A stretch of DNA of 64,000 nt from Phoronis australis (lineage: Eukaryota > Animalia > Phoronida), in the NCBI GenBank assembly GCA_002633005.1, contig NMRA01000064.1, forward strand, positions 377,977 through 441,976, written 5' to 3'. A program made the translations under genes and the position numbers. Positions 18,301 through 56,234 of this stretch are shown in pieces (the stretch's first letter is position 1; each line of letters starts with the position of its first letter). Below the pieces are notes generated by a model. The model made no database searches. It was not told the origin of the DNA and saw nothing but the letters and a program-made list of their open reading frames with translations.

Positions 18301-21300
18301 CCTTGTTATAATCCAGTTTCAGAGAACTGGTCATCTAAATCCCCATGTTCCACATTGTGGTCAAAGACAAATACAAAACAAATGACATGAAGACAACTGG
18401 TCATCCATCAACTAACGCATTAAAACACATTACCTTCACTTCTGCCTTTCTCCTGTAAAGTGTGTCAGTCAGTTGGTTCTCTGCCCTTCTGAATGCCTTG
18501 TGCAGACGATCCATTAGAAGACGCTCCCTCTGTTGGGCTATTTCCTAAATGAAAGGTTTCAAAGAACTCAATTACTTTCAATGGTAAAACAAACATCTAG
18601 GAAACAGTGAGAGTAACCTAAAGTTCACATTTACAGAAACAATTGCATTTTGCATACCTAAATCTTCTTTCTATTCAACTATAAAGCGATTCTGAAATAA
18701 AATGAATTGAAACTTTACTGGTCTTTTATCTGAGTGCTACAATCTTTATGTCACAGCAGTGCTATAATTTACTGAGAAAATACAAGACAGGCAAATTTGC
18801 TGATAACACCACTTGAAATAGGAAAACATATCTAAACTGTCATACATCATTATGAAGTATATCCACTTCTTTCTTCATTCCCTATTAATGTAACTATTAG
18901 ATGCAGTTTCTTTAATTTACATGACACAAGACATCTGTGGCGTGTTTAGGCTTATTTTGTTCAATTTATACCAAAGACGACATCAGTGACTTATTTAAAC
19001 ACAGCTTGTTCAATTTATACTGTACAAGACATCAGTCTTTACTGACAATTGCCAGCAGTGCTTCATCAATAAGCCCCACCCACCTCCTTCTTGGCCAAGA
19101 GTCTCCGCCTCTCCTTCAAACTGCGTGCCACTCTTCTCTTAGCCTCCTCCTCTTGCAGCAGTATCCTCTCTTGTCGCTCACGAGCTTGCTCCGCCTCCTG
19201 TCGCTGGTACATGATGTGTTCGTCTCGCAAACGCTTTTCTTCTTCCTGTATTTACAAACAAATAAAAAACTTTTTACACTGTGCTTTGGTCCCGATTCAT
19301 ACTTGCTGGAACATTCAAAACCATTTACATTCTTTTCTTGCAAGATAAACTCTGTTCAACTTTAACTCACAAAAATAGTACACCCCTTAATTAATCTCCT
19401 GGGCTATTCAGTAATCCTTCAAATGATGTACATGGTTTTGTAGTTGGAACATACTTTCATTTATTAATGTAGCACTGAGGCCACGCCTACCTGGACCTCC
19501 TCCAGGGAGATACTGCCAATCATCAACACGTCATCCTCTACAGTCTTGTCAAAATGGTCAATGTAGTCATCTAGCTCCTCCTCTTGCAGCTGCAGCTTTA
19601 GCTCAGAGATTTTCTTGTAAGTGGGCACATGTTCTGGTCGGGCAAACAGTGACGGGGGCTCTATGGTGGTCTCCAGGTCTGACTCACCCCCCTCCAAGGT
19701 GTCCATAAGGCGGTAGATGTCGGGCAAAGCCCCGTCTTTATCTGGTGGCGCTAGAAAGGAATCACTGGGTCAGTAAGACATTTTCTATGAGTCAATTATT
19801 CAAATGTGCACACCGTCAATTACGCTGACCGATCAGCAGCAAGTAACATTTCATGGTCTGCACACAATATCTATATTTGCCCGTAGAGTTTACAATCTCC
19901 AGCCAATGAAAGTTGTATTTGACCCATACTGTTTAGGATCCAGCAACCCTCATTTACTTTTCAATCTTTGAAGTTTACAGGATCTGGTCACTGAACACGT
20001 ACGTCTATACCCCTTATGACTCAAATCCCTGAACTGTTTCTCCACCCTGGTCCCTCACATTAGCAGTTCCCTCAGCATGCTGGGAAAATGGTTTTACAAA
20101 AGCACTGTTGTAAGAATGAGGCTTAAAGTTAGAAATGAACTATTGTATTGATAGTTTTTGTAACATAGCCTCATGTTTTCCTGCGTAGGGGGACTTGAGA
20201 AAAGAAAAACGAATTTGTAACAGTGCTGACTAAAAATGAGCCCCAATGTACAAAAATGCACGACAAAATTTTTACATATCTATGTTTCTAAATACCATTA
20301 AAACCTAAAATGCTTAATGAAGAGATCAATCTATTGTAATATGCAATAACTAAAATATTCTTTTAATGAACAAGACGTAATTGATGACCTAACCAATAGT
20401 TCACTCTGAACTCAAATACATTTAATAATTAGTTAAAATGGTTGTGCTCACTGTAACTGAACTCTTCATCACTCACGACGATGTCATAATCTTTAGGATC
20501 CAATGAGCTGAATTCACCAGCCGCAGGCTTAAAAGAGAAACAACTTGTTTCAAGAAACTGACCAAAGCATTAGAATAATCAAGAACAGCACACATATCAA
20601 TCAAGTTCCATAGGGTGTCATGTTGACTTGGTTTTATATTGTGTTCTCACCACACTAAAATGCATTGTGGCTCCACTATTCAGAATTCATAGGGGTAGTA
20701 AAATAATTATCTTCTCAGCCAGGGCCATAAACACTTTGTTAACCTGTGTTTAGTTGCACAGTTCATCTGAGATCGTTACAACTAAGAGCAGGGTTGACAA
20801 AGAACTGTTTTCACTGGTCTTGCATGTTAATTTCAAAAAGCTTGTGTGTGAATGACACCCATGATTTACAACAGTCAACAATATTCTATGCGGACTAGTT
20901 ACACCCTCCAAGCCCAAATGGTACATGTAAGTTATTTATATAAACATGTAATTCTTAAAGCAGCTTGCTGACCAGACTTAAAAACGTATGCGGAAGTTAT
21001 TTAATGAACAGTGACCCCATGGCTTCTGATTAAGCAGATTCTTCCATGAGAAAAAAAACAGGTAAAACAGTTCAATATGTTTATCGCAGGGGGAAAATCA
21101 AGAGAAGGAAATGTAACTTCAAACAGCAAGACATGAATACCGATGCTTTAGGTTTTCTTGAAGACTTAGGTCTCCCCGATTTAGGTCTTCCTGACTTTGG
21201 TCTCCCCGACTTTGGACGAGATCTGCTCTCAGCATTCTGGTCTGAACCAGACTGAACACCTGAAAAGATATGTATTATTCATGAACACAAAAGCTTCACT

Positions 21301-22194
21301 CAAACTTCTCTTTACAGAGTCCCTACTGGTAAATAAACAAAATGCACAATTCTCTTAAAACAATACAATCATCTACCATATTGAGAATATTCCAGACAAA
21401 AGCAGATAACAATCTTGTCTGCTGTTAAAGCTGTATTTTGACCTGTTTGTCTGGTTGAAAAATTATACTTTTCACTTGTATCAAATTGGACATGTAATAT
21501 TCCTTACCTTGGCAAGATTTGATTTCCGTTATCAACAAGACCGTGACAGTGACCCAAGAAAACATTTCAGAGTTTATTGTGGTAGGCCCACAGATACACA
21601 CTATTGACAAGAAACATGGTACAACAGAACAGGCCAACTGTAACTTTGAGCTTGATTTGTGATGTTCATATTGAACTGGTGTTCCTTGTTTATATTACTG
21701 CTAGATCAATTCTTGTAGTGCTGTCATGTTACACAGTGCTGTCATATTACATAGTGCTGTCCTATTACATAGTGCTGTCATATTACAGAGCTGTCAAATT
21801 ACACAGTGCTGTCATGTTACACAGTGCTGTCATATTACACAGTGCTGTCCTATTACATAGTGCTGTCCTATTACACAGTGCTGTCATATTACAGAGCTGT
21901 CAAATTACACAGTGCTGTCATATTACAGTGCTATCATATTACACAATGCTGTCATATTACACAGTGCTGTCATATTACAGTGCTGTCATATTACAGTGTT
22001 ATCATATTACACAGTGATGTCATATTACCATCAAACTCTGGACTTCCATTGTTATTCTCTTCACTTCCTTGTCTTTCAGGTTCCAAGCCTTCCATATCCA
22101 CAGCAGTGGACTCTGTTGCTATCTGACCTTCAACCTCTTGACTGGCACCATGACTGGTGTTGGTTTCTTGTAGAGGTTGATTTGCAGAATCCAT
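6344..22194 (-). CDS. OFCC1: OFCC1/ojoplano-like multipass membrane protein, ~1108 aa. Exons: 22029-22194, 21141-21259, 20452-20527, 19491-19750, 19084-19245, 18434-18544, 17793-18077, 17141-17310, 16551-16682, 16108-16272, 15175-15232, 14308-14508, 13381-13520, 11962-12180, 11291-11543, 10216-10382, 8301-8496, 7696-7851, 6969-7076, 6344-6526
   Basis: Twenty AG/GT exons join in frame (3327 nt including stop). The protein has a charged coiled-coil stretch (EEEKRLRDEH...RKAEVK), then WKVDWDRTPQPVQLKLNCLRGVKNKIPSGRY...RVVGWGAFPICD...GKYKLPLLRGEMD...DLDHWLCNVY, several hydrophobic TM segments (exons 10216-12180) and LHNNGRMLDIYWRLH...PFDLEISNQEL. These recall the OFCC1/Opo family. The start codon and the most N-terminal exons are less certain. 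Confidence 0.8.
8876..10145. repeat. 57-bp minisatellite arrays (agtacatcattctactttagactaactccaatataagtgtctatgactgtgtgctgg), in two blocks ~8876-9233 and ~9610-10145
   Basis: Unit start recurs at 8934, 8991, 9048 and onward. The two blocks are separated by a single N (9234) and a re-entered copy of the sequence starting at ~8509. Confidence 0.9.
12895..13143 (-). mobile_element. Dispersed repeat family A (end ggtgtcattcacacacaataggcc...), copy 1
   Basis: The reverse complement of ~13030-13142 aligns by eye with 61380-61490 and with the reverse complement of 20750-20860. The far boundary is approximate. Confidence 0.6.
13874..13930. repeat. 16-bp tandem repeat (ttgaaagtgacttttg) x~3.5
   Basis: Directly visible. 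Confidence 0.85.
14798..14906 (-). mobile_element. MITE family B fragment (cagtggcg(c/g)atccaggatttt terminus)
   Basis: The reverse complement cagtggcgcatccaggattttgagtgagggggg...gccaggattttgcccgtc...cgaactgccagatggaatctg matches 58581-58665. Confidence 0.7.
20612..20860 (-). mobile_element. Dispersed repeat family A, copy 2; short TIR gggtgtcat...atgacaccc
   Basis: The terminal 9-bp inverted repeat is visible, and the internal sequence resembles 12895-13143 (aattatcttctca(c/g)ccagg(a/g)ccata). Confidence 0.6.
21716..22028. repeat. 18-bp minisatellite (agtgctgtcatattacac, with some 16-bp variants) abutting an OFCC1 splice donor
   Basis: About 17 units; explains the VLSYYT/HSAVIL repeat ORFs at 21604-22199. 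Confidence 0.9.
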
Positions 22195-23416
22195 GTTGAA
22201 TGTCTGAAATGTGATATCAGTAGCAAAGGACCATAAGATTTGAGTAACTCAACCACTTGCAGAATTACTGTGTTGTATTTTGATTCAGATAGTTTTCAGT
22301 CACTTTTAGTGCCTCATAGTCACAAATGCATACTTGTCATGGTGCCTCATAGTCACAAATGCATACATGCTATTTAACCATTTTTTTCTTGAATCATATC
22401 AATTTGTTGACCATAGCACTGATAAAAATGAGTCAAAACACATATTATCCAAATGGTCAAATGCATTAGGTACTTACAGCATAATCGCATAAATACCAAT
22501 AGTCTGAGTGAGCCAGTGAGTGACGAATGGCGAAATGAATGTTCAATTAAATGAAGCAAATCTGAGATTATTTTGACAAAATGGATTGCCAATCAATGAG
22601 GGTTTGAGAATTCATTGTGAACTTCAGCAAAAAAGTGTAACAAGTACCACTAAAGAAACAGCAAAAAATAATACAGCAAATACATAAAAGCACATTGCTA
22701 GACATGTATACAAATGAGCCATGTATGTTGCAATTGATGGCTGAAAAATTATGGAAATAACAAACATTCGTTGACATTAACCAATGTAAGAACATTTTTG
22801 TAAAGAAGATAAAAATTTCCAGTCCAAATTAATTCAATTTGAATGTTCAATTGCTAAAATGAACTTGGTAATTCATTGTAACCACTACTTGTCGAGTTGG
22901 TTCGTTCAAGGTCCATAATTAGACCTACTCCTGATTCAGTTATTATGCCACTATATCCCCTGCGTAAAAATAGCCAGCGATTTAGGAACTGAATGAGGGA
23001 CTGCTTGAAGAAAAAGTTTGATAATGGGAGTTCTAGTAGGAAGGAATCAAGACATTGTCGAACTCCTAACTTGACCTAAGCTAAGCCAAGGTGTCCCCAA
23101 TACATGGGCCTACGTCATGCTATGAACATTCCCACTAAATAAAATTGGTTCTAACCCCGGTGCTTAAGGTGAACGGCGGGGTATGGAAAATTGAACTAGA
23201 CCGTATTTATCCACCTTGGCTGAGACGCGCTCGGCTCATGCTCAAAGGGATGCCGCCAAGCTGCTCTATTCATCGAGTCACGAGCGAGGATAATTGACTT
23301 CGCTCATGCGGATATGATCAGCTGATTACAGTCTAGCCTAACAACTGTACTTTTTATGGAGAGAATTTTACGTAGTTTTTACTGTAATATTTGAAAAGAG
23401 GAGCGAAAACAAATAN

Positions 23417-28282: not shown

Positions 28283-31200
28283 CTATGCATAAAACTCTTT
28301 CGTGGGTGCTTTTGTGTATGATGTGTTAAGCCGTGGTGTTTTTGGTTCATCTAGTGCATAACTGCCTTCATCTTTCTTTCGCATGCGGTACACAATAAAC
28401 ATTACGAGCAGAACAGCAAACAGCAGACCGACTACGGCACCACCTATGACACCTGGAAAGAAGCAATATATCATATTTAGAACCAGGAATTTCATTTAAA
28501 AACATGAATTAACACATGATCGAAATGAAATCGGCAAGAAAACATACTTAAAGTGTACTAAAGATCTCACCGAGTAACCATGGAAACAATTTCACAGGCA
28601 AATTCCATTTTTACACATTGGCAACAAACAAATTCAATTTGCAGAGTGAAAAAGTTCAAAATGTTATTTCGGTTGTTTTTCTTTCGGCTTGCTATCCTCA
28701 TCAAACTAGCTCCTCATACACATAACATAATTTTCTCAAGCCTGCACAAATCTTTAGTGTTAAGGCCCCAAAATACAACCCGAGATACAGTTGACCCTAG
28801 GGGTCAGCGAGCTACAAAGACCTTTCCAGGGCCTTTCCTAACAAATTATGCATTTGTTATTTGTATTGAATAGAACCTAAAATAAAATACAAAGACGAGA
28901 CTCAGACAAGTGGTATTAGTCTAATTCGTCAATAACATCCAAAGGGTGAAGACAAGTTTAAGCGGTCATACGTGGAATTTGATTCAATTTAAACTGTAAG
29001 AGAGCGCACAATAGACATAATAACTATGGCAAGTAAAACAAAACAGCTCTAGTGTCCTCGGACATTGACCTGGGAAATGAGAGTTATTATGACTTTATAT
29101 CCAAGGCGATACACAGAAATTGTGGGAAAAGGTGCCAATTAGAGAGACATCCCTTAAGAATTTCACTAGCTAGATTCACGGCACAAAATAAATGCAATGG
29201 ACTTCGAATAGGTGGAAAGGTTAACTATCATAACAGGCTTGTACAATGTGCAATGCCAACCAAACCTAAGTAGTTCTGTCCTTGTAACAACACATCTCAA
29301 GTCATGTCCACCGCAAGCCACAGTAGAGATGGGATATCAGAAAACTGTAGGACACAACAGCAAGCAAGCAAACAGTCCACGCATCGCAACTCAGGGACTG
29401 TGCAATGCAGTCACAGGTGAAAGATCACTGAACTTAGAGACTATGGAATGCAATTACATGCAACTGTTGGCGAGACCAAGGAATACAAATGCAGAATTCA
29501 AGAAGTGATCACCAAGTGAGGCTTGATGTCTCTCCAGCCCGATATTCCCCCCAAGCCCTGTGCACCTTCAAACCATCCCACAGTTCAACCACCATGCGTC
29601 CAGTCTTACCTGCCAGTAGTCCAGGATGGGCCACAAGACCCGTGCTGGCAGCTATCTGTCCACCCGTCTGCTCAAACTCAACCTCGTTTGTGTCTTCTTC
29701 TCTGTCCTCTTTACTGTCGTCCTCCCTGACCTCATAAGAGCCTTCCTCGTTATCTGCCCCGGGCACCACGTTAGATTGTGTTGGGGCGGTATCAGTGGAC
29801 ATCTCCTGGTCATTATCATCCTCAGCATTGGGCTGTAATCACATTACCATAATCATGACTACCAATACTACTACCACAATCATTATTGCTATTTTCACCA
29901 TTACTATCAGTATTACTACTACCGCAATCATTGGTATTGTCATCATTATTATAAACTCGTTTATGGCACACTAAGGTAGTATTAACATCAAGGCCATATT
30001 TCTCCAGTAAATACTCCCTGCATTTCAGAATACATGTCGCAACATTCCAGTGCAAACTTCATAACTGGAATGCTATTGAGTTAAAGCTTTTGTAAGTCAT
30101 ATCAACACACTTAAAAGGTAAGGAGCAATCACCATATTTGCCAACCGACATGAAATGGTTTCCATGCCATCACCATCGAGATCATAGAGGTTTACTTACA
30201 CGCACACTCTTGATGACAAATTGGGGCGTAGTTCTCTTGGACGTCATTTTGGTGGTCTCGGGAGCTGGGGTGGGAGGGGTCGTGGCTGCAAAAGTACATA
30301 CAGCTTAGTTTAAGACACAGTCATCTCAACAAAGTCAGAAATACACTGCGTGGTTTAGATTTGCTGCGCAGACCATACGTAAAGCATTCAGGATTACAAC
30401 TGAGCTTTTTACAATGTCTAAAAATGTAGCCATGCACAGGCAACAATGCACTACTCTCAAGCCATGCACAATAAGCTTGCGTTCTGAAAGTCAACCAGAT
30501 GACAACAGAAACAGGTCAGACAGGTTTTGGTTTGTGACTGAGTATACCGTATCAATGAACCATCTACTTACAAGTATACTAAACAATGATTTGGCGATTC
30601 CACCAAAATTTGGTCGAGTTACCTGCTGATACACCACTAGTACCTCTCTCAGTGATTAAGGGATATACAGGGCTTGGAATGACCAATGGCGAAAAACGCG
30701 GAAATTTTTACGGCCCGAAACATGCGCGCAGCCAACCTTGAAAAAGTCGGTGTGGACCTTTTGCCGACAAAAATCGAAAGGACTAAAAAAAAGAAAAAAA
30801 AGCGTGCGTCTGCGTCTGTCGTAGCTCGTCCGCCACTCTCACCTCCAAACATTTTTGGCTGCAGAGTCGTAGTATTTGTCACCGCGGTTTACAATCACAT
30901 GAGCCGCCATTGAGGAAATCCACCACGCTATCCCAGATGCCCCGGCAATGTTGACAATTTACGCTCCTCCGAATCATAAAGAGCAACTTCCGCTTTTCGA
31001 GGTGAAAGTCGTCGGCAACGCAGCGGTAAGAAAGAAATTTGCCGCGGAAATTTTACATCAAATCCAATTTTTTACACGGAAATATAATAAAATACGCGGA
31101 CAGAACATTTGAAAAAAGCGGAAATCCGTGTTTCTGCGGAAAATTCCAAGCCCTGGATATAGGACCCTCGAAAAATAGCCAACTTTGGCAAACTTTGGAA

Positions 31201-34200
31201 TGTCAAATCTCACAAATAGCAGATCAGACAGCATAATTTACCATTGTTCTCCAAAACACCAATTAGGAATTGTTTATAAAATTTACCTCTTTTGTGTGAA
31301 GGCTATCAAAGACAGTACTTTCATGATTTTTACAAAATAACTCAACAAAGTGGCATAAAACGAAAACAAAATGATAATTTAGACAACTGTAACAGCGTTT
31401 TTGAGATTTCATCTTGTACAATTATATCAAACAGAACCTTATCATGTCAATCATACCATTGTCTTGCTATGCACGTACTTTCTATTCCTATTGTGCTAAA
31501 TTTTACTACAAACGCATGGTCACCTGGTCCAGGTTATAGGAAACAGGTGTTCGGACCAAAATCAAATTCTACAGACTTTCTACTTCCAGAAAATACATAC
31601 TTTTAACGAGTCAAAATCTGTACGTTTTGTAGACATTTGGCTAAATACACAGACAAGTCGATAATGTCACGCGTGACAATTACGCGTTATTCCAATAAGA
31701 CACTTTCCCCAGTGCCGTAAAGGGTCTAGTCCATTCGTCCATTCTGAGGTGAAAGGTCTCTCCCAACCGGCTTCCCGTAACTTGCTTAAACTGGTAGTCA
31801 CAAGCACTTTGTAAGCAATTTTCAAAATTACTCCAAACTAGTGAGAATCGACAATAGTGACAAGAGTTTTATTTGAATGTAAAGATTCAAATGAGCAAGT
31901 CAAAGTTAGTAATCTGCTAATAGGACAAAACTGGATTTTAGTAACTATCCTATTGATTTTATGATCAGTTACATCTTTCCAGAAACTTTTTTTTGCATAT
32001 ACCTAGTCAAACATTTTTTGAGAAATTGAAATTTCTGCTACTTTCAAACCACTGGCCCAGTGACCACACACTAGACTATGACTCATAATACTGAATAGTA
32101 AAAATAAGACGAGCGGCGGAACTAAAATTTATAACTATTATAATATATACTAGTATCGACACTTGTTGTTTTATTTTTAGTATTTTATAGTCTTATCCGT
32201 CGGAAACTGCACGGCATTCCAGCATCTATTTTTTTCATTTACTCGTAATACTTACTATGTCTAGGCTCAGATGCCATGTCCAGCAGAGGACCAACACTGG
32301 ACTCGGTGACTGCCTCCTTCAGGTCAGAAGTGGTGGGCTCTTTAGCCTGGACCCCAGACACCTTCAGGTCCATGTCGACTACAACACTGCCANATCTTTC
32401 CAGAAACTTTTTTTTGCATATACCTAGTCAAACATTTTTTCAAACCACTGGCCCAGTGACCACACACTAGACTATGACTCACAATACTTAATAGTATAAA
32501 TAAAATGACGAGCGGCGGCACTAAAATTTATAACTATTATAATATATTCTAGTATCAACACTCGTCATTTTATTTTTAGTATTTTATAGTCTAATCCATC
32601 GGAAACTGCACGGCATTCCAGCATCTATTTTTTTCATTTACTCGTAATACTTACTATGTCTAGGCTCAGATGCCATGTCCAGCAGAGGACCAACACTGGA
32701 CTCGGTGACTGCCTCCTTCAGGTCAGAAGTGGTGGGCTCTTTAGCCTGGACCCCAGACACCTTCAGGTCCATGTCGACTACAACACTGCCAGGTGACACA
32801 CTGTTGATGATGAGGGCTACTGTGTTGCCACGGAATTTCTTTTCAAACGACATCATCAGCTGAAACGTAGGAAACCTGACTTGCTACTACTTGTCCATTT
32901 TACTTTTACACATTTACACAAGATACATTTATTTCAAAATAAGTCAGCAATAACGACCAGGTCATTCCAGTTAGAGAACAAAAACTGCATCAACGCTCGC
33001 TTCAAAACTAGGCGTATTTCATTATATTTCATGTCTTATAAGGAAACCAGTACAAAGTGCAATAACCGGCTCATCTTTATATTGATTTTTGCAACAATTA
33101 ATTATTGTCGGTAGGAATGATATCACAGACATGGCCTCACCTAGACACCAAACATAACGCCGACTTGAACATACTTAGGCATCTAATCATTCACAGACCT
33201 GTGTTGATAGCGTTTGCCAAGGCAACACAGGGGAAGACAAACATGGTTATCCAAAGAAGGACACAATCTAGTCTGAGCACGTAGCTCACAGCTAGCTACA
33301 GACTCTCAGCTGATAATGTACGCTAGTACAAACTGCAGTTATCATGTTCACAGCAGGTCATTTGACACCAATGTAGAGCCTGTTCGAATACAAAGTCGAA
33401 TCTACTTGGCACTGCCTTTTGATAACAAGAAACGGAACCATGTCTTGTTAAAATTGCGAAGTTCGTCTTAATAGCCATCACAAGTTCATAAGAACAACTG
33501 CACACTTGTGCACAATGTCCATGCTGATGGCATCAAGAGGCCACGTGCTCATGAGTAAAACCTCACCTTCTTTTTGATCTTCATTTTGTAGAGGTCCACA
33601 TTTTTGGCAACTGTATTGTAGTCTATGTCAAACCGTGCAACGATGTTGTAAGAGTACACCATGTCTGAAGACAAGAACATGAATATTTAACAACACTTAA
33701 TCAATAAATACTACATGGATGTAATTAGACATCACATTCACAACACTGTTCAAGGCATCCGCCGATATTCACTGTTTTAATCTGCAGCAGTCACAACGGA
33801 GCTTTGCAACAAGTAAGATCAAGCATTGCACTTTCCCCAAAATATGTTGGAACTNNNNNNNNNNNNNNNNNNNNNNNNNNNNNNNNNNNNNNNNNNNNNN
33901 NNNNNNNNNNNNNNNNNNNNNNNNNNNNNNNNNNNNNNNNNNNNNNNNNNNNNNNNNNNNNNNNNNNNNNNNNNNNNNNNNNNNNNNNNNNNNNNNNNNN
34001 NNNNNNNNNNNNNNNNNNNNNNNNNNNNNNNNNNNNNNNNNNNNNNNNNNNNNNNNNNNNNNNNNNNNNNNNNNNNNNNNNNNNNNNNNNNNNNNNNNNN
34101 NNNNNNNNNNNNNNNNNNNGAGTCACGCGATTCTTGTACCTTATCTATGCATGTCTTTTCACGGGCTACAGGTTCTGTAAAGAACAGTACATGCAATGTG

Positions 34201-37200
34201 TCAACTTGTTTCACAAATAAGACTTTACCGATCAACATCAAAGTTCAACACAGAAAAGTCACACACTCTGGCTCTTTCGGGCAATGTAGTTACGTCAAGT
34301 AATAACCGAATACTTACAACTACTAACGGCAGTGATACAAATTAAACAACACTAAATAGCACTTTTGACAAAAGGCTGGATGATTATTATCATAATATAT
34401 TACCATAGTATATTATCATAATATGTCACCACTATTCAATATTCAAAGGCTTCTAACCATACTATGGAAGGCCACTATTTCCCAGAACAATGTCTGATGG
34501 GAGCTAAGCAGGGTTGTCCACAGCTATGAATCCAAACATGCAGAAAGAATGAACACGTCAATAAGTGGGAAATGCATGGCACGTTCTCTCAAGTCCAAAT
34601 CTACTTCCACGGTAGTCGCACTATATTCACTAGTTTGTCAAATTGTGTCTTAAGTGTAAACATGTTGGGGATCTCTAGTGGAAGCAATGAATACTTCCAA
34701 AGCTGGCTGCCTGTGTAAACTATCACGAAACAGTTGCTAGACTCCGCAGGTGCTTCAAGTACCCATCTAGTTAGCCATACACACACTGTGAGATATTTTA
34801 GACGAGCAGACTAAAAACACACCCAGAAAAAGACATAAGCCATGAAATAATATACCATGAAATAATACAAACAACAAGGTAAAGCACTGCCATGTAAAGT
34901 ACATCTTTTCCTATTTAGTTAAAACAAGATTTAAAGTGAGACATCAAACTAGACTCACCACTGATAATTCTTATCAACTAGGTTATAAAAGATAGCAACG
35001 CTTAAAAACAAACATGTCAGCCCCTCAATTGAAACAAAAAAGGCACTTGACAAAACTATGAAGCTACTAACCTGAGGCAGATCCCTCGGCATCCTCTTGG
35101 TCCTCATCAGACCCAGAACCATCCCTGTCATCTTCATCATCACCCATACCACTGCCATCGGTTATGGCCTACAGTAACAACACTACATGTCAAGCTGATG
35201 GTCAACCAAACCAAAAGGGGAGTTGAGCAGTGGAAAATAGCAGGTTTTGGGTCTAAAACTAGGTAATACTCACTGTCTTATTAGAAGATAGTACAGAAGA
35301 AATAAACATACACAAACACTGGGAATGTTACAATGTACATGAACTAAGGGCTTGCCAAACAGCTGCCATAAGTGACAGATAGCTCAACTGATGCTAGTTG
35401 CATGTAGAGAGCAAGGCAAAATGATCACTGACCTGTAAACTACATCTGAAGAAATCAGAGTAATTGAAGTACAATGAGCGAGCAAGGGAGATTTGGTCAG
35501 GTGAGGCAGCAATTAGTTTTCAATGGCAATCGAAGGTAATTGGCTAGGCACTTGGCTCACTTCACTCGCGCATTCCGAGCATTTACGCTCGCAAGGTAAC
35601 ATAAATCTAGCTAGTGAGAGTGACATTCACATTTACCGCCTAGCCTGGCAATATCATCACAGTTAAATTTGGTGTACAAGTGAACTATGAGCTGAACGTC
35701 ATGTGACTCGAAATTGCCGAAATCGAGCATGGTGTTCATGTGCGACCTTCACCTCATTACCACACTGAACTATAACTTTCTGTTTCACTCTATACATTAT
35801 TTGCTAGCAGAAACAAGTGAACATCCCATTCTCTCATCAAAAGCTTTTGCTCACACTGCTACAAGAGATCTGTCAAACAGCACTGCCATGTTGCTTTCAC
35901 AGCTCTCAGACAACCCAGTAAATCTGCAAACACCTAGTCATTAATAATGCAACAACTGATATGTTTCTACTTTGCTATTGCAACTGAAAAAGAGTGGCAG
36001 TATTGAGAACACCATGGGAATACAAGGCATGGCACAAGTGGTTTATTTGACTTGTAAGAGAAAGAAAAATACCAAGAAGACGTGTGACATTTGTGAACTC
36101 TGAAACAAGGGGCATGCTGTTGTTGCTGTAGATAACTTAGGGAGACAGTCTGGGGCTGAAATCTGATTTAAGTTAAAAAAACAAACAAGACCCCCTTGCA
36201 GCTAATATTGACTCATTTGCATATCCTAGCAAGCAGTTTGTACCCATCATAGAAGAATTAGGGTGCGAGAGGTTCTAAAAATGAAAGTCCTTAAAAGTGT
36301 CACACTACTCCTAGAATGAATATTTCTGACTCATCAGCTCAAACTCCCGTGAAAATGATAAGAATACGTTGACCCTTCACCTGTGTTGCTGAAGTTTTGA
36401 TACAGATGACCAGATTTTGAGAAGCCATGTTTTTTCCACATAAGTGCTAAGTATAGACAGAAATTAGCAAATTTATGGTGGTCAGCAAATAAGAAATTTG
36501 TCATAATTAGGAAGGACTACTCTGCACTACTACTAACTCGAGTTAAAACACTGAAGCCATTTCAAATGAGTGTTGACCAAATCATTCTACAAAAATTTGT
36601 TGTATTATCAGTTTGAAGAACAAGTCTGTCACAACAGCTAACGAATAGCATGACAGTCATTAACAAAGAAACTCCTAATTACTACTACCATGTATACCTG
36701 GGCACCCTACCTAAAGTGGCACAGTTGACCTAATTCCATGCTTGATTGAAAAATTAGCAATCTATAGAACACTTATAAACAATGGCCTTGAAAACCACAC
36801 ACAAAGTTCTTTCTTACACAGTTTAAGTGATTGCCTACCAAGTTAATTTTTTATAACTGTAATGTGCCCCAGGCCTTGTTGTGCTTGGTACAACGCACTA
36901 ACCACTTCAGCACGCACAAGACCTCCTCCTCTGGCCACCCCACGTGGTCGATAGTTCACTGTGTGCTCATAATATAAAACACTTACCTGTTTATTTTCGT
37001 TGTAATAGAAATCATTTGATTCTGCTACTCTGCCAGCGGAATTCTGAAAATATGAACAAACCACTTTATAGACACTGAAACTCCTGATAGGGTGTAATCA
37101 GATAAGTTGAAGTGAAGGTACATAATGAATACAGACTCAAACTAGTCTGAGCCATGTTAGTTCACCTACCTCCTATTTGAAATAGTGTGAATTATTCAAG

Positions 37201-40200
37201 CACGAACACCGTAACACCAACAATTGCTAAAAAAATAAGACACAACAGCTCATCCTGGAATACAACACACTGTCAAGAATATCTAAAAAAAATTTTTGGT
37301 TACAAGTTCATCTTTTAGCTTTTATTACACACACACACACCTGATCTAACTGACGTAACTAAATGAGAACCTCAAACACCCCTGCTCTGACTGACGCAAC
37401 TAAATGAGAACCTAGATAAGTTGACCAAAAAGCAACCCCAACATAAATTCCAGAAGTATTATGATCTTGTGGTTTTCCAAACATTTTCATAACTCACCAG
37501 ACCCCCTCCCTCTTCCCATCAGACATAATGCTGCCATCAGCTCTCACACTCACTACACTTGACAGTAATTTATGGTCAAGGAAAGCAACACACTACAGTA
37601 AGTAGGTACTTGACAAATTAGAACAATGGCATAGGCCAGGCCTTATTATGAAATATATGATACCTGTGGATGTACATACTCCAGGTATCAGAAAAAGGTT
37701 AAACTGCCACTTTGTTTTGACAAAGACCCACACTGCGATCAGCTTTAAAGTAACAGACAATTTATCGATTTACAATACGAGTACATTAGCGCAGAGGAAG
37801 TACGCGAGGCATAAAAATGCTTCAGCGTCAGAGAACTCCGCTGTGATTGACTGCACAATATGCGCGACGCGCACTATGTACTCAGACGTAATTACCATAA
37901 TGGGGACACACATTACTAGTGTCAAAGGCAAACATCTGACTGCTTACTTGGGCAATGTTCGATGGGGAAAACGGTGGCCGGTCCATAAAATGCAAACCAT
38001 AGTTTAACATATTCTCAGTTTGAAAGGAACGTGTGTGCAGTGACTATGGTATTGTTCGAGACCAGCTTGCATATATATAGTGACTTTCAATCAACACAGA
38101 AGTTTCCCCAACATAAGGTAAAACTTCAGGAAATTGGGTAAAATTAGATTACATGACTCCCTAGTATTACACCATTCTTACTTAGATGGTATGGACAACT
38201 ACAGAAACTGGACTTTTTAACATGACAACTAAATTAACAAAATATAAACAAAATCGCAATTGAGGACACATTTGTAAATGCCTGTGATGGTATCATTTAC
38301 AATCATGGCATCTGGCCAAACAAAGCAGAGTTATCTATGACACCATCAACACACACTGACATTTCTATCTAAATAACTTAAATGGTACCAGGACCTCAGA
38401 ATTATTTTCTGCAATAATTTCAGTCTGTTCCAAAAACAAGGTACCTAAACTACACAGTTAACAGACTCATAAAAACGGTCACGGATGCATGAACGTGACT
38501 CACGTACCTGCAAACACCATTCACTGACTCACAAACACGGGATCAGACTCACAACACACGATCCATTCACCTAAATACACGGGACACGGACTTACATTTA
38601 CGAAGAAACACGGTTAACGGGCCATCAAACACGGTTCACTCCTATAAAGCATGCCATAAACACGCGTCCCAGACTCATCGGCTTCCTGGGTCAGCCTCGT
38701 CCCCAAGCCTCGAGACGGTTTTGATCGGTTTGGCGATCAGCGCTCTCTTGAGGCTTGCGGACGAGGCTGCCTCCCAGGTAAGTAGCACGAAATAGTGACC
38801 ATAACTACGTAGAAAGGGAATTGATCAACCTTCATGTATTTGGCAATGGCAATACCTTTGCCTAAAGACGTCGCTTTCAGTACAAAAGTAAGATTTGAAC
38901 AAACTTTCACATGAGACAAATATTTCAAGTCAGGCTATAATAACTCCATTTTGATATTTTTTAATCCGCATCAACTTAACAGTAAACAGGCATAAACATC
39001 AGCACGGCGAGAATCAACAACTAAGAGATGTTACCAGAGACCTTTACACAAGAATTCTATTCCATTTTCTTGGGGCAGATCCGAATGGTGCAATAGGTGA
39101 AAGAGAGGGTCTTTTCGAGGATTTATAACGGTCCGTGTCATTTTAAAAAGAAAGCAGAAGATAACGGAAGTCTCACTGTCAAAATTAATTAATTGATGTT
39201 AGAAACAGGTTTAGGAAGCCAATAAATTGTAGAACAAAGAAGCAGTTTAAATAATGTTTGTTGTTTCTAAATCACAAAAATTACATCACAGTGCAGACAA
39301 AAATAATATAAAAATATATTTAATCTCGCACCCATTAAACAGCTGTCGAAGCCGACATCTACATTTTGTCCGTAAACTGTATTTGACGGTCCGTTAAACG
39401 TGTTTCTTCGTGAATATGAGTCCGTGACCCGGGTATTTGGGTGAATGGATCGTGTTTTACGAGTCCGATCCAGTGTTTGTGAGTCAGTGAATGGTGTTTG
39501 CAGGTATATGAGTCGTGTTCATGCGTCCGTGACCGTGTTTATGAGTCCATTAACCCTGTAGTTTAGGTACCTTGAAACATTAAGAAGACAATTTGTCTAA
39601 GAAGATAATCTGTCACCAACAAAATATGCTTAACGAAACCAAATAAACTCAACTGACTCATTATGTTTCCATGAATTTTAAANCTCCCTCTTCCCATCAG
39701 ACATAATGCTGCCATCAGCTCTCACACTCACTACACTTGACAGTAATTTATGGTCAAGGAAAGCAACACACTACAGTAAGTAGGTACTTGACAAATTAGA
39801 ACAATGGCATAGGCCAGGCCTTATTATGAAATATATGATACCTGTGGATGTACATACTCCAGGTATCAGAAAAAGGTTAAACTGCCACTTTGTTTTGACA
39901 AAGACCCACACTGCGATCAGCTTTAAAGTAACAGACAATTTATCGATTTACAATACGAGTACATTAGCGCAGAGGAAGTACGCGAGGCATAAAAATGCTT
40001 CAGCGTCAGAGAACTCCGCTGTGATTGACTGCACAATATGCGCGACGCGCACTATGTACTCAGACGTAATTACCATAATGGGGACACACATTACTAGTGT
40101 CAAAGGCAAACATCTGACTGCTTACTTGGGCAATGTTCGATGGGGAAAACGGTGGCCGGTCCATAAAATGCAAACCATAGTTTAACATATTCTCAGTTTG

Positions 40201-42248
40201 AAAGGAACGTGTGTGCAGTGACTATGGTATTGTTCGAGACCAGCTTGCATATATATAGTGACTTTCAATCAACACAGAAGTTTCCCCAACATAAGGTAAA
40301 ACTTCAGGAAATTAGGTAAAATTAGATTACATGACTCCCTAGTATTACACTATTCTTACTTAGATGGTATGGACAACTACAGAAACTGGACTTTTTAACA
40401 TGACAACTAAATTAACAAAATATAAACAAAATCGCAATTGAGGACACATTTGTAAATGCCTGTGATGGTATCATTTACTATCATGGCATCTAGCCAAACA
40501 AAGCAGAGTTATCTATGACACCATCAACACACACTGACATTTCTATCTAAATAACTTAAATGGTACCAGGACCTCAGAATTATCTTCTGCAATAATTTCA
40601 GTCTGTTCCAAAAACAAGGTACCTAAACTACACAGTTAACGGACTCATAAAAACGGTCACGGATGCATGAACGTGACTCACGTACCTGCAAACACCATTC
40701 ACTGACTCACAAACACGGGATCAGACTCACAATACACGATCCATTCACCTAAATACACGGGACACGGACTTACATTTACGAAGAAACACGGTTAACGGGC
40801 CGTCAAACACGGTTCACTCCTATAAAGCATGCCATAAACACGCGTCACGGACTCGTCGGCTTCCTGGGTCAGCCTCGTCCCCAAGCCTCGAGACAGTTTT
40901 GATCGGTTTGGCGATCAGCGCTCTCTTGAGGCTTGCGGACGAGGCTGCCTCCCAGGTAAGTAGCACGAAATAGTGACCATAACTACGTAGAAAGGGGATT
41001 AATCAACCTTCATGTATTTGGCAATGGCAATACCTTTGCCTAAAGAAGTCGCTTTCAGTACAAAAGTACGATTTGAACAAACTTTCACATAAGACAAATA
41101 TTTCAAGTCAGGCTATAATAACTCCATTTTGATATTTTTTAATGTGCATCAACTTAATAGTAAACCGGCATAAACTTCAGCATGGCGAGAATCAACAACA
41201 AAGAGACGTTACCAGAGACCCTTACACAAGAATTCTATTCCATTTTCTTGGGGCAGATCCGAATGGTGAAATAGGTGAAAGAGGGGGTCTTTTCGAGGAT
41301 TTATAACGGTCCGTGTCATTTTAAGAAGAAAGCAGAAGATAACGGAAGTCTCACTGTCAAAAGTAAGAATTGATGTTAGAAACAGGTTTAGGAAGCCAAT
41401 AAAATGTAGAACAAAGAAGCAGTTTAAATAACGTTTATTGTTTCTAAATCCCAACAATTACATCACAGTGCAGACAAAAATAATATAAAAAATATATTTA
41501 ACCTCGCACCCATTATACAGCTGTCAAAGCAGACATCTACATTTGTTCCGTAAACCGTATTTGGCGGTCCGTTAAACGTGTTTCTTCGTGAATATGAGTC
41601 CGTGACCCGGGTATTTGGGTGAATGGATCGTGTTTTACGAGTCCAATCCAGTGTTTGTGAGTCAGTGAATGGTGTTTGCAGGTATATGAGTCGTGTTCAT
41701 GCGTCCGTGACCGTGTTTATGAGTCCATTAACCCTGTAGTTTAGGTACCTTGAAACATTAAGAAGACAATCTGCCTAAGAAGATAATCTGTCACCAACAA
41801 AATATGCTTAACGAAACCAAATAAACTCAACTGACTCATTATGTTTCCATGAATTTTAAATCAGCTCACAGTTTCCTCAAGAGAAAATGTGAGCACAGAA
41901 AACAGTAATATCCTGGTTAATTTGACCACCATTCACACTTTGCCAATAGCTAGTTGCTGAGCAGTGAAAACTCAACCCCTAGCAGGCCTAATGGCCATTC
42001 ACTGAAAGCCTGGTCAGGTTCCAGCAAAGACCACAGGGACAATAAGTCTATTCAGAGTGTCATGTAACCCTGGCATTCCAATGAATGGATCTCACTGAAA
42101 CATGGCACCAGGCCAACAATGAACAACTTTACTGGCAGCTCAAAAGAGAGTAGATCTTGTTTTCTTACACATGGTGATAAATTAAGGAGTGGAGGCCAAA
42201 GACACTAAACACAGAGGCAAAGATGTGCAGGTGCCACACACATGCACG

Positions 42249-45200: not shown

Positions 45201-48200
45201 TGATGGAAACAATCACAAGTCAGTTGAACTACTTGTTAGGAGACCACCTATAGAACAACTGGTGAGCATACAAAGACCGCCTTTTCAAAAGCCAAAGCAT
45301 AGAATTGATTCAAAAGCATACTTGGTACACAGTGCATTGTACTTTCAATATTACATTCTTTCACTGGTAGCAAATGGATCTGAGATCAAGTCCTGGTCAA
45401 CAGACACACATTGACTGGGTCCTGCTAATCAAGATCATATGGTGGACACTGCCAAAAGCAGGCTGGAGTTACATCAGAAACTAATAAAAGTAGACAGGGT
45501 TAAAACTTAGGCTGGTTAAAATACACCTGTTGTTGCCAAAGCCAAGTCGACACAGCTAACTTGATTCAAATCTTACTTAAACCATAAATGTCATCAAAAC
45601 ACAGAACTAGATTGGGCAGAATGATGGCTGAAAACTGCACTAGAATTAACAGCTTTCAGTGATAGAATCCCTGACATTACAGCCAGATTAATAACCACAA
45701 ATCTCTGACATTACTACAAAACCATTGTTGTTGTATGACACAGCTGCCCTGAAAACATGATAAGCTTTGTTTGATAGGCTAATCAGCTTGAATAATGTAC
45801 TTCATTTGAATATCACATGAATATTGCCTCATTCAATGAAAACCATAAAACAATTTAAAACTATGTAAAGCAATCTCAACTCTAAATCAAACAATAAAAT
45901 AGCCAAAGGTCACAACTCAACAAGAAATTTCTTTCACAGTCAAAACTGTGATCAACCACAAATCAAGTGAAGCCCAGGCTCCAATAAAAAGACAGCCACA
46001 AAAATGTGGAAAAAATACAACAACAGATTTCCACAGATTAATCAAAATAAACACGGATATGTAAATCTGCAGTGGAGAAAAATAACAAAATATTTCTACA
46101 TATCCTATGAGCATGATAACAGAATGTCAAAAAAACAATCAACACTGGGCAATTTCTCAACAGCTCCAGTTATGGCTGCTAGATTTATCAGTTTTGGAAG
46201 AACCCAGATAACAGAGCTATCAATCATTTATGTATCTAGTCATTATGTCCTAACGGCATGACAGGCTAAGTCATCAAAGACATCAACTGATGAAGATGTA
46301 GTGACTCTGGTCACTGTACGAGGGGAGGGGGAGTACCTGTAGATGGCAGCCATAGCAACATGTGTTGAAGTTTACAAATCTTGCAGAATTTCTTCAGCAA
46401 AAGAACAAAATAAGCACCGATACACTGTTACTAGCAAAATTAATTCAATCATATCTTTTGGAATGCGTAAATGAGAATCCTCAAGCATTACAGGCAAAGC
46501 TCGTGGCATTAAACATGGTTCAAGATAGCTAAAGTCTTTTCAAACATAGCTCAAGATTTCTAAACACAGCTCAGCCCAATGTTTGAACACATGCAAATAT
46601 GTGTCCACACTTGGACCTGTACAAGGAATCTCTCAGGCACAACCAATGCTATTGGTAACAAAAGGTCACAACCAGGAGGATGTATGCTATAAAAACCCCA
46701 ATTTAACATCAAAGCACACCATTAAATAAGCTGACCAAACTCCAGCGGATTCCCCTATAACAGATGCTAAATGACTGGAGTTCAGTATACAAAACTAAGT
46801 TCTGGTTTTCTTGTGGTAAAGGTCATTCATGATCTACATGATCTTTTTCAACTAATATCTGGGTAAACTTTGGAAAAACACGATAAACTCTGGCAACATT
46901 AAAACTGAAACCAGTTATTGACATTCCTAAACTTAAATTTACAAAGATGACTGATGGGATTAGAAACATCAGTCTCACTACCTGAACTTAATGTTAATAT
47001 GGCCAATATTTTCCTGTTTATTGCATTCAAAAATCTTTGTACGAATATCTTCTAATTTTGAAAATCTGCAGAATTTTTTAGAGAATTCTAGATTGGCTAA
47101 ACATGTACTCATAAAAAGGCCCTGACAAACAGCTTCAATGGGTTCTGTATGAACTTAGCTACTGTACCAATAATTCCAAAAGACAAACAGATAAGAAAAA
47201 ATGCAGCTGACACTAACGACAGGTAATTGGTATCAAAACAAAAAACAGGTTATTAGCATCAATTTACAAATTGCGCATGAACTAAAGGCTGAGCCCCACA
47301 TCATTACAAACGAAAAAAGCTATGAATGCACCTGGTTTAAAAAAAACAAATGAGTCATTCATGATACCGCCACATGAAACTGTGCCCATTATATGACTAA
47401 AGCATATAGGGAAAAAGGATAGGCCAATATAAACCTTTTTGTTTTGTTAAGAGACAATGAATGGTTTCCTTCTGAAACCAATACTCTCCAAACCTGTTAA
47501 CTACATATTGTTGTGCTGAGCAATACAAAAATACTTTAGAAATTTCCCACAAGTCATTCTCTGTTCTTCAAAGGCTGACTACTTAACTACAAACAACAAA
47601 CCTTTACATCGTGTATTGAACATTGCATGACCCATTTGCCACGACAGCAAGTTTTACTTTTACTTTGCTGAGAAATTGGGAAAAGGAGAATCACTAGTCC
47701 ACTATACTGAGAACTATCACTAGTCCACTATACTGAGAACTAACTATCACTAGTCCACTATACTGAGAACTAACTATCACTAGTCCGCTATACTGAGAAC
47801 TAACTATCACTAGTCCACTATACTGAGAACTAATTATCACTAGTCCACTATACTGAGAACTATCACTAGTCGACTATACTGAGAATTAACTTTCACTAAT
47901 CGACTATACTGAGAACTAACTATCACTAGTCCACTACACTGAGAACTAACTAGGAGCAGGTCATAGCTGCCTCCAGGTTGTCAGTGACTCCCAAGGTGCT
48001 CAACTGCCTTGTTTAAAAAAATTTCATACATCTTACATCCATCAAGCACAACTCTGGCAGAATGATATATCGCCATGGTTTCACCTCAGGCAATTCTATT
48101 GTAGTAAGAGAGCTGTTGCCATACCCTCATCATCTGCTTGCACAAAAACAATGCATTTTATACGGTAAAAATTCTCCAGTTTGGACAGTGAAAAATTAAT

Positions 48201-51200: not shown

Positions 51201-51633
51201 CAACACAACTTTAATGGTTTACCAAGGGTGAAGACTAATTTTTCAGCAAAGTTTTCGTTGTTCAGAGGGATATGACCGCCTAGTTGTGAGACTTGGTAAG
51301 CGGCCAGTGTCAATGACTGAGTCAATGGCAATGGGGATTCCGTTTATTTGAAGTTTGAAATGGTAAATGAGGCTAATTCGAGTCAATTGACGATTCAAAA
51401 CTGATTTCTTCGCCATCTTCACGTTATGCCAACACGACAGAAAACATGACAACCAAATAAGAGTTCAAATTCCAGTATCGTGTTGATTATCTCCTCGTTG
51501 TTAGCATCGTCCGAACTCCAGCGGCATTATCATTAACCTGACATACAGGCAGTGGAACACTACTCACCCGCGCCTCGATATTTTGGCACAGAAGAGCCAG
51601 ACACAGCACCAGGAGGTATAAAAGGTGCCGCAT
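28283..51633 (-). CDS. SDC: Syndecan (type I heparan-sulfate proteoglycan) with SEA-like module, ~333 aa. Exons: 51568-51633, 36987-37043, 35072-35168, 33567-33664, 32655-32859, 30200-30285, 29610-29832, 28283-28452
   Basis: The last exon [56 protein letters not shown] gives the syndecan TM (GxxxG), C1 [10 protein letters not shown] and C2 EFYA. Exon 1 is a signal peptide, [22 protein letters not shown]. Exon 3 is an acidic Ser-Gly cluster, [32 protein letters not shown]. Exon 6 is a Thr/Pro stalk. All phases are compatible (1002 nt). The N gap at 33855-34119 could hide an extra exon. Confidence 0.9.
30668..31155. mobile_element. MITE with TIR cagggcttggaat (hAT-like CAGGG end)
   Basis: cagggcttggaat ... 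attccaagccctg is a perfect 13-bp inverted pair with gatata on both flanks. The interior is CpG-rich with repeated cgcggaa motifs. Confidence 0.8.
32655..33664 (-). other. Two exons encoding a ~100-aa SEA-like domain within syndecan
   Basis: They translate to [33 protein letters not shown]|[68 protein letters not shown]. The pattern is strand-helix-strand, GSVVV, strand-helix, and both outer introns are phase 1. Confidence 0.7.
33855..34119. other. Assembly gap (N run)
   Basis: Run of N; ORFs that span it are meaningless. Confidence 0.99.
38437..39574. mobile_element. Non-autonomous DNA transposon with ~190-bp imperfect TIRs (caaggtacctaaactaca...tgtagtttaggtaccttg)
   Basis: The long inverted arms align by eye, the termini are CA...TG and aaa flanks both sides. 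A nested hairpin lies at 38692-38769. Confidence 0.85.
40615..41752. mobile_element. Second (probably allelic) copy of the long-TIR element
   Basis: Same TIRs and same flanks as 38437-39574, inside the duplicated block. Confidence 0.8.
42236..42371. repeat. Compound (CA)n microsatellite
   Basis: Several acacacac runs; explains the His/Thr ORF 42189..42377. Confidence 0.85.
44475..44885. mobile_element. Degenerate MITE with long imperfect TIRs
   Basis: Left gtccacacacaaacttaccctagaacaagttacacc resembles the reverse complement of the right end, gtccaaacacaacctaccccagaaaaacttgcacc. Confidence 0.55.
47689..47952. repeat. 25/29-bp minisatellite (atcactagtccactatactgagaact[aact])
   Basis: About 9 tandem units are visible. 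Confidence 0.9.
48161..48515. mobile_element. Degenerate MITE starting tacggtaaaaattctc
   Basis: Left ggtaaaaattctccagtttggaca resembles the reverse complement of the right end, ggtaaaaattctcgagtttgagaca. Confidence 0.6.
49617..49735. repeat. ~14-bp tandem repeat (ggtggtacaccttt)
   Basis: About 8 units; explains the [12 protein letters not shown] repeat ORFs. Confidence 0.85.
50375..50730. mobile_element. MITE with ~50-bp imperfect TIRs
   Basis: Left cctctaacagaactctcattgtggttctaaacctcgccactacgtga resembles the reverse complement of the right end, cctctaatggaagtattatcgtggttctcaatctcgccactacatga. Confidence 0.7.
50908..51048. mobile_element. Small palindromic MITE family C, copy 1
   Basis: cgttcagtagacgctaggacct ... 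aggtcctagcgttactgaacg; a related copy lies at 58331-58425. Confidence 0.7.
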
Positions 51634-55153: not shown

Positions 55154-56234
55154 GGGGCCCTGAAAGTTTGCAAAACATGTGGCAGTTCTATTGTCAATAA
55201 ACACTTTAGCACTCGCTGCGAAAAGAGGCGCAATGTTGTATCGTCGTTTATCTACAGTGTGTCAAGCCCCGCACCTTGGAGGAACTCTAAGTCGCAATCA
55301 GGAAAAAGTGGAAGGCATAAATGCAAACAATCCGGAAAGTGTTTCAATTTGGAAAGGTGCACAGAGTTGTGCTCAGTGGTCATGAGGGACGTTTCCAGCA
55401 TCTACAGTGCTTGAATTCCTAATTGTAAGACTTAGTCTCTATCTTGTCAGCTCAACTAGGCAATCTGTATAGGCATTACGTCACGCCTAATCGTGCTTCC
55501 TTCAATTAAATGCAACGAGCGGCGGGAAAGCCGCTCACGAACGCCGCGGAAAACTCTAGCATTAAAACGTCCAATATGAGCATGAACTCATGAAAAACGA
55601 AAAACGACAGTTTGCAAAATTCTTGAAGAGAAATAAGCATAAGTAAGGCCTGTTTCGATAGAATCATCCCACGCTCTCCATTTACTGTGTAAGCAAATGC
55701 GAGAGCGTCACGTGACAGTGTAAACCACTACCTGTCACTTCCAGAACCATGATTGTGTGTTTTTTTTAAACTAAATTGTGTATGATTATGGCAATGGAAT
55801 ATCCACCTCGTAACCCTCATACAAATTGCATAAGAACGGGGGCGGCCACCTATTATTCGCGTATGAATTTTTGTGGTCAACATTATATCGTCAGGTGGCA
55901 CTCGTTTGCGATACCTGCTGAATGCCGTTGTAGGTCAAGCAAAGAAATGCAAAGGTCAGGCTCCATGGAGACACGTAAACAAGTGAGTGACGCCATGCTT
56001 CAATGTTATGATTTGTGTTTGTGCACAACGCATTGATTTACCCAGTGGATTACACTGATTAACAAGTTTGGAGACACTTCCCACTGCTGTCTTGTATTTA
56101 CTTACACCACTAAATAAGAAAGAACTTGGTTATTGCGAACGAGGACGTGGTGAATTTGTGGAAACAACAGTTTAATACTGTTTTACTCTGAAGCGTCATT
56201 ACGAGTTCATTCATTCATTCACGTCGCCTCAAGA

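Follow-up and report, generated by a model that had tools for sequence, protein, structure and literature searches.

The window analyzed here, a stretch of DNA of 64 kb, contains a syndecan gene of nine exons that is located on the minus strand between positions 51633 and 28283 (Table 1). Evidence on its structure was obtained from three stranded RNA runs of one study (X2, X3, and X4, approximately one-fifth of each) and from the older contig X1, a single contig of 2228 nt that carries all exons. The encoded protein of 402 amino acids is characterized by the following order of components: (i) a Ser-Gly cluster, (ii) a putative thyroglobulin type-1 (TY) domain, (iii) a SEA-like module, (iv) a stalk, (v) a membrane helix, and (vi) the syndecan tail. 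Exons 1 and 2 are connected by joint 37043->51568 (164/150/341 reads in X2/X3/X4), with read ends clustered at 51746-51748. The syndecan domain in the last exon was detected by profile search (PF01034, E 3.4e-27) and ends with EFYA, a PDZ motif, which confirms the syndecan identity suggested in an earlier note on this DNA. RNA reads join this exon to the components of a syndecan ectodomain, namely the hydrophobic stretch of exon 1, recognized by eye, and two acid-flanked DGSG sites; the Ser-Gly sites of exon 3 are predicted to carry heparan or chondroitin sulfate chains.

The best of 1814 protein matches is P0001, a JGI protein of 412 amino acids, whose tail is 95% identical to that of the window protein. 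It has the same layout of Ser-Gly cluster, TY, SEA-like module, stalk, and syndecan tail, and contains three DGSG sites compared with two in the window gene. The two proteins are 59% identical in the SEA-like module (60/101 columns) and 46% identical in the stalk (51/111).

Table 1. Components of the syndecan gene and other features of the 64-kb window.
Feature	Position	Strand	Description
Exon 1, coding part	51568..51633	-	22 codons; hydrophobic signal-peptide-like stretch, by eye; matches N-terminus of P0001
Exon 2	36987..37043	-	57 nt; RNA joints
Exon 3	35072..35168	-	97 nt; acidic Ser-Gly cluster with two DGSG sites; glycosaminoglycan attachment predicted
Exon 4	33855..34174	-	Inferred 207 nt; TY; 55 nt visible (34174-34120), remainder in N gap 33855-34119
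Exon 5	33567..33664	-	98 nt; SEA-like module, first part, with strand 1 and the beginning of helix 1 as predicted; RNA joints
Exon 6	32655..32859	-	205 nt; remainder of SEA-like module; RNA joints, structure models
GSVVV motif	32776..32790	-	Predicted cleavage between Gly199 and Ser200 of 402-aa precursor
Second copy of 3' part of exon 6 and following intron	32042..32392	-	Directly after a single N
Exon 7	30200..30285	-	Thr/Pro-rich stalk; RNA joints
Exon 8	29610..29832	-	Acidic stalk and juxtamembrane region; joints 29832->30200 and 28450->29608
Exon 9, coding part	28283..28452	-	Membrane helix and syndecan C1-V-C2 tail ending with EFYA; PF01034
Direct duplication	37506-39682 vs 39684-41860		97.8%; flanks a single N
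Direct duplication	8506-9233 vs 9232-9967		91.4%; flanks a single N
Inverted repeats, intron 1	38437-38639, 39372-39574, 40615-40817, 41550-41752		~200 bases; 86-88%
Open frame with NHL repeats	56154-57107	+	Intronless, 317 codons; PF01436 E 1e-32; upstream of syndecan, opposite strand
Multi-exon gene	~10100-22200	-	Downstream of syndecan, same strand
Short intronic elements	30668-31155, 50900-51060		Heavy RNA coverage on both strands, many loose ends
Tandem repeat arrays	8873-10150, 21716-22028, 47690-47952		Units of ~57, 18, and 30 bases, from self-match offsets

The other features of the window include an open frame with NHL repeats and a multi-exon gene, two checked exons of which had no Pfam match at E 0.01. 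The two short intronic elements probably represent repeats of high abundance, for example small transposons, and the inverted repeats of intron 1 are possibly the ends of a non-autonomous DNA transposon doubled by an assembly overlap. Three duplications are located at single Ns and likely represent uncollapsed haplotype overlaps in the assembly. One of them involves exon 6: regions 32042-32392 and 32438-32791 are 96.0% identical over 354 bases, their exon part being identical over 137 nt. A tandem duplication of the SEA exon was considered and rejected in view of the single N at the border, the two similar duplications at other single Ns, and the single copy on contig X1; the additional copy is likely a haplotype overlap and not a second exon.

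The exon structure proposed in the earlier note was based on a direct junction between the Ser-Gly exon and the first SEA exon (35072->33664), resulting in a protein of 333 amino acids. This junction is absent among the joints listed, and the reads join 35072->34174 instead (182/162/445 reads), passing through an additional exon of 69 codons; thus, the 333-aa model was rejected in favor of the 402-aa protein. Most of the additional exon falls into an assembly gap, and its reads have loose ends at 34120 (203/170/420 reads) and 33665 (292/283/590 reads). Contig X1 has 206 letters between its two placed pieces, 55 of them visible in the window and 151 unseen, which gives an exon 4 of 207 nt (69 codons) and the protein length stated above; 207 nt is the length for a single exon, and an intron within the gap is possible. 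Exon 4 has phase 1 at both ends. Its visible 55 nt encode the first Cys, and translation of the loose read ends by eye gives GLLGAYVPQ and TRGVPVCE. P0001 contains at the corresponding place a full TY domain (PF00086, E 2.2e-16) with the six-Cys pattern of type 1A and with CWCA for CWCV. The TY domain of the window gene is thus inferred from its two ends, which are seen, and from the ortholog for the rest. This domain, which separates the Ser-Gly cluster from the SEA module, was overlooked in the earlier note, and any annotation of the syndecan gene from the genome only is wrong because the TY exon falls in the gap.

The other part of that exon structure agrees with the RNA data. Exons 5 and 6 have AG/GT ends and are spliced in frame to 303 nt, so that the expected segment of ~100 residues corresponds to a module of 101 codons in all three runs. 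Junction 33567->32859 is covered by 266/207/445 reads in X2/X3/X4, and junction 32655->30285 by 134/114/234 reads, with a further 141/134/275 placed on the identical duplicate exon end. As a whole, the SEA exon junctions have 207-445 reads, which is of the same order as the other exons (150-621). The earlier note had named the absence of these exons from syndecan transcripts as a reason to abandon its proposal; they are present in the RNA junctions. Two variants of exon 6 are listed for contig X1, both synonymous.

The GSVVV motif noticed previously is encoded in exon 6 in the context SVSPGSVVV (PGSVVV at 32793-32776, Gly codon at 32790-32788, and Ser codon at 32787-32785), and P0001 keeps PGSVIV. 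Both GSVVV and GSVIV conform to the GS[VI][VI]V pattern of MUC1-type SEA domains; the motif appears to be conserved, as judged from these two sequences. By chance, GSVVV is expected with a probability of ~1e-4 per in-frame module of 101 codons; Markov resampling of the window (40 replicates) gave 0.15 occurrences per 64 kb, all six frames counted. At a cut-off as permissive as E 10, a search with the Pfam SEA profile (PF01390), recommended by the earlier note, matched neither of the two exons (5 and 6) nor P0001; thus, the module is classified as SEA-like, outside PF01390. A sequence search of PDB with exon 6 found no SEA chain. The phmmer search of exon 6 against 1.84 billion representative proteins produced five matches: P0001, two repeat proteins with Pfam SEA domains (E 3e-7 and 3e-5), and two repeat proteins without SEA; GS is in register with the Pfam-SEA repeat proteins in the exon 6 alignment. 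SEA clusters of the Atlas were found with scores of 0.83 and 0.75, at the level of leads only. Word-seeded homolog searches gave nothing among 33 candidates for exon 6, and only P0001 itself among 62 candidates for residues 143-250 of P0001. 

All structure predictions were made for the ortholog P0001, not for the spliced window protein. The AF2 model based on alignment A1 (pLDDT 75) has the beta-alpha-beta-beta-alpha-beta order of a complete ferredoxin-like topology, with the GS at a hairpin, and pLDDT is 72-91 across most of the module. Alignment A1 consists of eight rows, and the model is partly steered because two of the rows are known SEA sequences. In a VIA comparison of this model with 48,161 chains, the top five matches are all SEA domains (MUC16, Z 10.5; TMPRSS6, 9.9; MUC16, 8.9; Gpr126, 8.6; and MUC16, 8.6), and the first non-SEA match has Z 7.9. 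The match with Z 10.5 has an rmsd of 5.1 over 110 aligned residues, and the one with Z 9.9 has an rmsd of 2.7 over 102. MUC1 and EpCAM are absent among the 50 matches listed in either VIA run of the A1 model. In a Foldseek search with the same model, beta-alanine synthase is at rank 1 and EpCAM at rank 4 (E 5e-4, 195 columns, rmsd 16.5 A), and TROP2 is also aligned. The unsteered model from the single sequence is poor (pLDDT 48.6); it has a strand-helix-strand-turn-strand-helix order with the GS at the turn, and SEA chains are found at ranks 3, 6, 9, 11, 14, and 18 with Z 6.0-6.9, beneath two non-SEA matches and tied with others. Foldseek found nothing for this model at E<=0.001. In both ortholog models, the GS motif is predicted at the beta2-beta3 hairpin. 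The SEA fold proposed in the earlier note is thus consistent with the predicted ferredoxin-like topology of the ortholog and with the position of its GS. From the sequence and structure comparisons, and despite the negative Pfam search, the module is very probably a divergent SEA-like domain.

To describe the distribution of these domains, we used the best 120 of 1814 protein matches and the best 80 of 154 metagenome loci, a sample of 200 overlapping sequences, 174 of them with at least 200 residues, that include 75 distinct tails; the sequences were picked by tail similarity, and hence the sample is echinoderm-poor. A TY domain was observed in 11 of the 200 sampled syndecans, including Owenia and Paralvinella, and the SEA module only in P0001, which is the single sampled sequence with TY directly followed by SEA. 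Between CWC and the tail, the ten other TY syndecans have 104-126 fewer residues. This distribution points to a lophotrochozoan as the source of the gene, although a tree of the 11 TY syndecans (TY and tail, 135 columns) has one supported inner branch of eight and neither places the species nor dates the gain of SEA. TY-bearing syndecans (L004, L005, L010, L014, L017, L021, L047, L051, P0026, and P0058) are seemingly widespread in lophotrochozoan-like transcripts, and no paper on them was found in the literature search. L055 (open frame 108-968) shares its membrane helix and tail with Paralvinella P0058 and is devoid of TY, pointing to a TY loss or exon skipping in a close relative.

The features described above suggest the following mechanism, which we favor with slightly better than even confidence: the expressed syndecan, from a likely lophotrochozoan animal, has a Ser-Gly cluster, a putative TY domain, and a predicted SEA-like domain that likely cleaves itself, and its head would be released without a sheddase upon pulling or unfolding. 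Cleavage between Gly199 and Ser200 is in itself reasonably probable. By analogy with MUC1 and IMPG1/2, the strained hairpin may drive an N-to-O acyl shift at this site soon after folding, and the two halves would stay joined non-covalently through the shared beta-sheet. The head would consist of ~177 residues, with both acidic Ser-Gly sites, TY, and half of SEA, whereas the membrane half would comprise 203 residues with the stalk and the EFYA tail. Thus, built-in GS cleavage would allow shedding of the sugar-bearing half without a shedding protease. In IMPG1/2, the rule GSxxV (x = V/I) separated cleaving from non-cleaving SEA domains, and the transmembrane proteoglycan IMPG2 was shown to be cleaved (PMC9478142); the window motif fits this rule. 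The cleavage site is located at beta2-beta3 (PMC6954182), cleavage depends on strain and not on the motif alone, and mutation of the Ser may leave slow cleavage (PMC10556640), and the predicted site DSVLV of MUC16 is not cut (PMC4456727). The SEA module is ~110 residues away from the membrane, which leaves room for ordinary juxtamembrane shedding. That head release by shear or by a pulling ligand would serve as a signal is doubtful, force sensing is speculative and drawn from the analogy with MUC1-type SEA domains, and a role of TY in cathepsin inhibition or growth-factor binding is likewise speculative.

The main rival to self-cleavage is a SEA-like domain that folds without cutting itself and serves as a rigid spacer or binding module, with the GS as a preferred hairpin turn and with ordinary proteases shedding the syndecan. 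The divergence of the module from Pfam SEA, the many non-proteolytic SEA domains (PMC9478142, PMC7349879), and the presence, among the listed structural neighbors, of zebrafish Gpr126 SEA, in which the furin site known from human Gpr126 is missing, are in line with such a role. We nevertheless consider it rather unlikely, since exact GSVVV and GSVIV occur in the two species at the scissile hairpin, whereas the non-cleaving SEA domains described in these two papers are devoid of the GS motif. The lack of a Pfam SEA match and the ferredoxin-like folds that crowd the structure lists at Z 7-8 would also agree with a ferredoxin-like domain that is unrelated to SEA and has acquired the motif by coincidence. 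There is only a slight chance of this, given that Pfam-SEA proteins, their GS in register, were retrieved by sequence without steering, that the domain is extracellular and adjoins a Thr/Pro stalk, and that the motif has a chance expectation of ~1e-4. Finally, the SEA exons might lie outside the syndecan mRNA or belong to a minor isoform, as the assembly gap and the duplicated exon half at the locus could suggest; isoforms in which the stalk directly follows the TY exon, whose end is unseen, are undetectable in the RNA joints. This reading is largely refuted, and its probability is close to nil, because the read counts of the SEA exon junctions are of the same order as those of the other exons, one contig carries all exons, and the independent ortholog P0001 has the same layout.

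The origin of the TY-SEA pair can be explained in two ways. The SEA module is a 303-nt unit between phase-1 introns that has the layout of an inserted cassette behind TY, and we infer that a lophotrochozoan syndecan already carrying TY acquired it by exon shuffling. Alternatively, the pair may be ancestral in bilaterian syndecans and share descent with the TY-CD part of EpCAM/TROP2; in that case, lophotrochozoans mostly kept TY, echinoderms kept SEA, and the lineage of the window kept both. EpCAM shows the same order and direct adjacency, its C-terminal domain adopting a SEA fold (PMC7349879); besides the Foldseek alignments with EpCAM and TROP2, the A1 profile match to EpCAM extends past TY (profile 18-103, chain 67-152), and SEA was reported in crinoid, sea star, holothurian, and brittle star syndecans. 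However, both modules are symmetric phase-1 units that are easily shuffled, SEA is absent from ten of the 11 sampled TY syndecans, and TY is absent, by eye, from the echinoderm, hemichordate, amphioxus, and Ciona syndecans in a published supplementary alignment. Moreover, the EpCAM superposition is loose and EpCAM is absent among the listed VIA matches, the TY domain scores higher with p41 and saxiphilin than with EpCAM, and many parallel losses would be needed. An ancestral pair is therefore improbable, as is the combined scheme of a self-cleaving, force-released syndecan with an ancestral bilaterian TY-SEA, in which both modules were lost in vertebrates, flies, and worms and the pair gave rise to EpCAM/TROP2.

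If self-cleavage is correct, release of the glycosaminoglycan-bearing head would no longer depend on sheddases, owing to a break point within the syndecan itself, and the protein would be a small model, amenable to testing, of proteoglycan release triggered by force. The same reasoning applies to the SEA-syndecans described in echinoderms, which include a major protein of the skeletal matrix. As to the TY-SEA pair, it would either have reproduced the core of EpCAM/TROP2 by convergence or hint at how that core arose. The weight of these considerations is limited by the published SEA-syndecans, by the TY-syndecans already in sequence databases, and by the predicted nature of the function.

Comparison of the window protein with known systems revealed both shared and distinct features. 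Vertebrate syndecans 1-4 have the same Ser-Gly sites, membrane helix, and C1-V-C2 tail with EFYA, whereas human syndecans lack TY and SEA; vertebrate syndecans are shed near the membrane by MMP/ADAM proteases (PMC8061687). MUC1-type self-cleaving SEA proteins, including IMPG2, share with the window protein the GS[VI][VI]V motif at the beta2-beta3 hairpin, a single membrane helix, and a glycan-bearing half N-terminal of the site. They differ by unrelated tails and by cleavage that is shown there and predicted here, and the window domain is too divergent for PF01390.

EpCAM has the composition ND-TY-CD, where CD is a SEA fold without the GS motif (PMC7349879). EpCAM/TROP2 (GA733) proteins resemble the window protein as single-pass type I proteins in which TY is directly followed by a SEA-fold domain; in contrast, EpCAM has a Cys-rich N-terminal domain and is devoid of the GS motif, the long stalk, and the syndecan tail, and the relative domain orientation of EpCAM/TROP2 is not superposable with that of the model (rmsd as above). 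No Cys was found between the signal peptide and TY in either the window protein or P0001; thus, the window syndecan lacks the Cys-rich domain before TY and is not a GA733 member.

The TY-syndecans of Owenia fusiformis (CAH1775402.1) and Paralvinella palmiformis (KAK2166227.1) have, like the window protein, a Ser-Gly region directly followed by TY and a similar juxtamembrane region and tail. Their class, the lophotrochozoan TY-syndecans, differs by the absence of the SEA module; their TY domains are 31-48% identical to that of P0001 over 64 residues. Two TY-like repeats were recognized by eye in the Crassostrea gigas syndecan in a published alignment. Thyroglobulin is not mentioned in the available text of PMC1464127, on syndecan evolution.

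The combination of syndecan and SEA, for which the earlier note did not know whether it had been described, is predicted in the window gene and has been published for echinoderms. The syndecan/SEA protein of Ophiocoma wendtii (contig 358) is abundant in the brittle star skeleton, the combination being called novel there (PMC4336488), and SEA was found in syndecans of the holothurians Eupentacta and Apostichopus and, below threshold, of sea stars (PMC10381214). These proteins share with the window protein the syndecan tail, the membrane helix, and a central SEA behind a Ser-Gly/acidic region; they differ by the lack of TY and by another V region of the tail, and their SEA modules were compared with the window module by eye only. 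Three of them have GS-hydrophobic motifs in the alignment of PMC10381214 (GSIIA, GSLVV, and GSVKV). No proposal of self-cleavage for these proteins was found in the available texts of PMC4336488 and PMC10381214, and the string 'autoproteoly' occurs 0 times in the latter. In the brittle star peptide table (81/81 rows, supplement 1 of PMC4336488), peptides reach VEITGFR, next to which the GS site is expected, and none spans it; the table results from a tryptic search only, slice order is absent, and the last three rows hold only peptides judged by the SEA pattern to be C-terminal, so that we gave it no weight. The string LKEAVT, from the predicted second helix in exon 6, also occurs in a brittle star syndecan/SEA peptide (row 580 of the same supplement), a match that may be due to chance because P0001 differs there.

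In the full-text literature, the coverage of which mostly excludes subscription journals, we found neither a report of a TY-SEA syndecan nor one of a syndecan that cleaves itself. Thus, the pairs of syndecan with SEA (published for echinoderms) and of syndecan with TY (annelids and oyster, in sequence databases) are already known, whereas the TY-SEA pair on a syndecan and its reading as a self-cleaving protein appear to be new.
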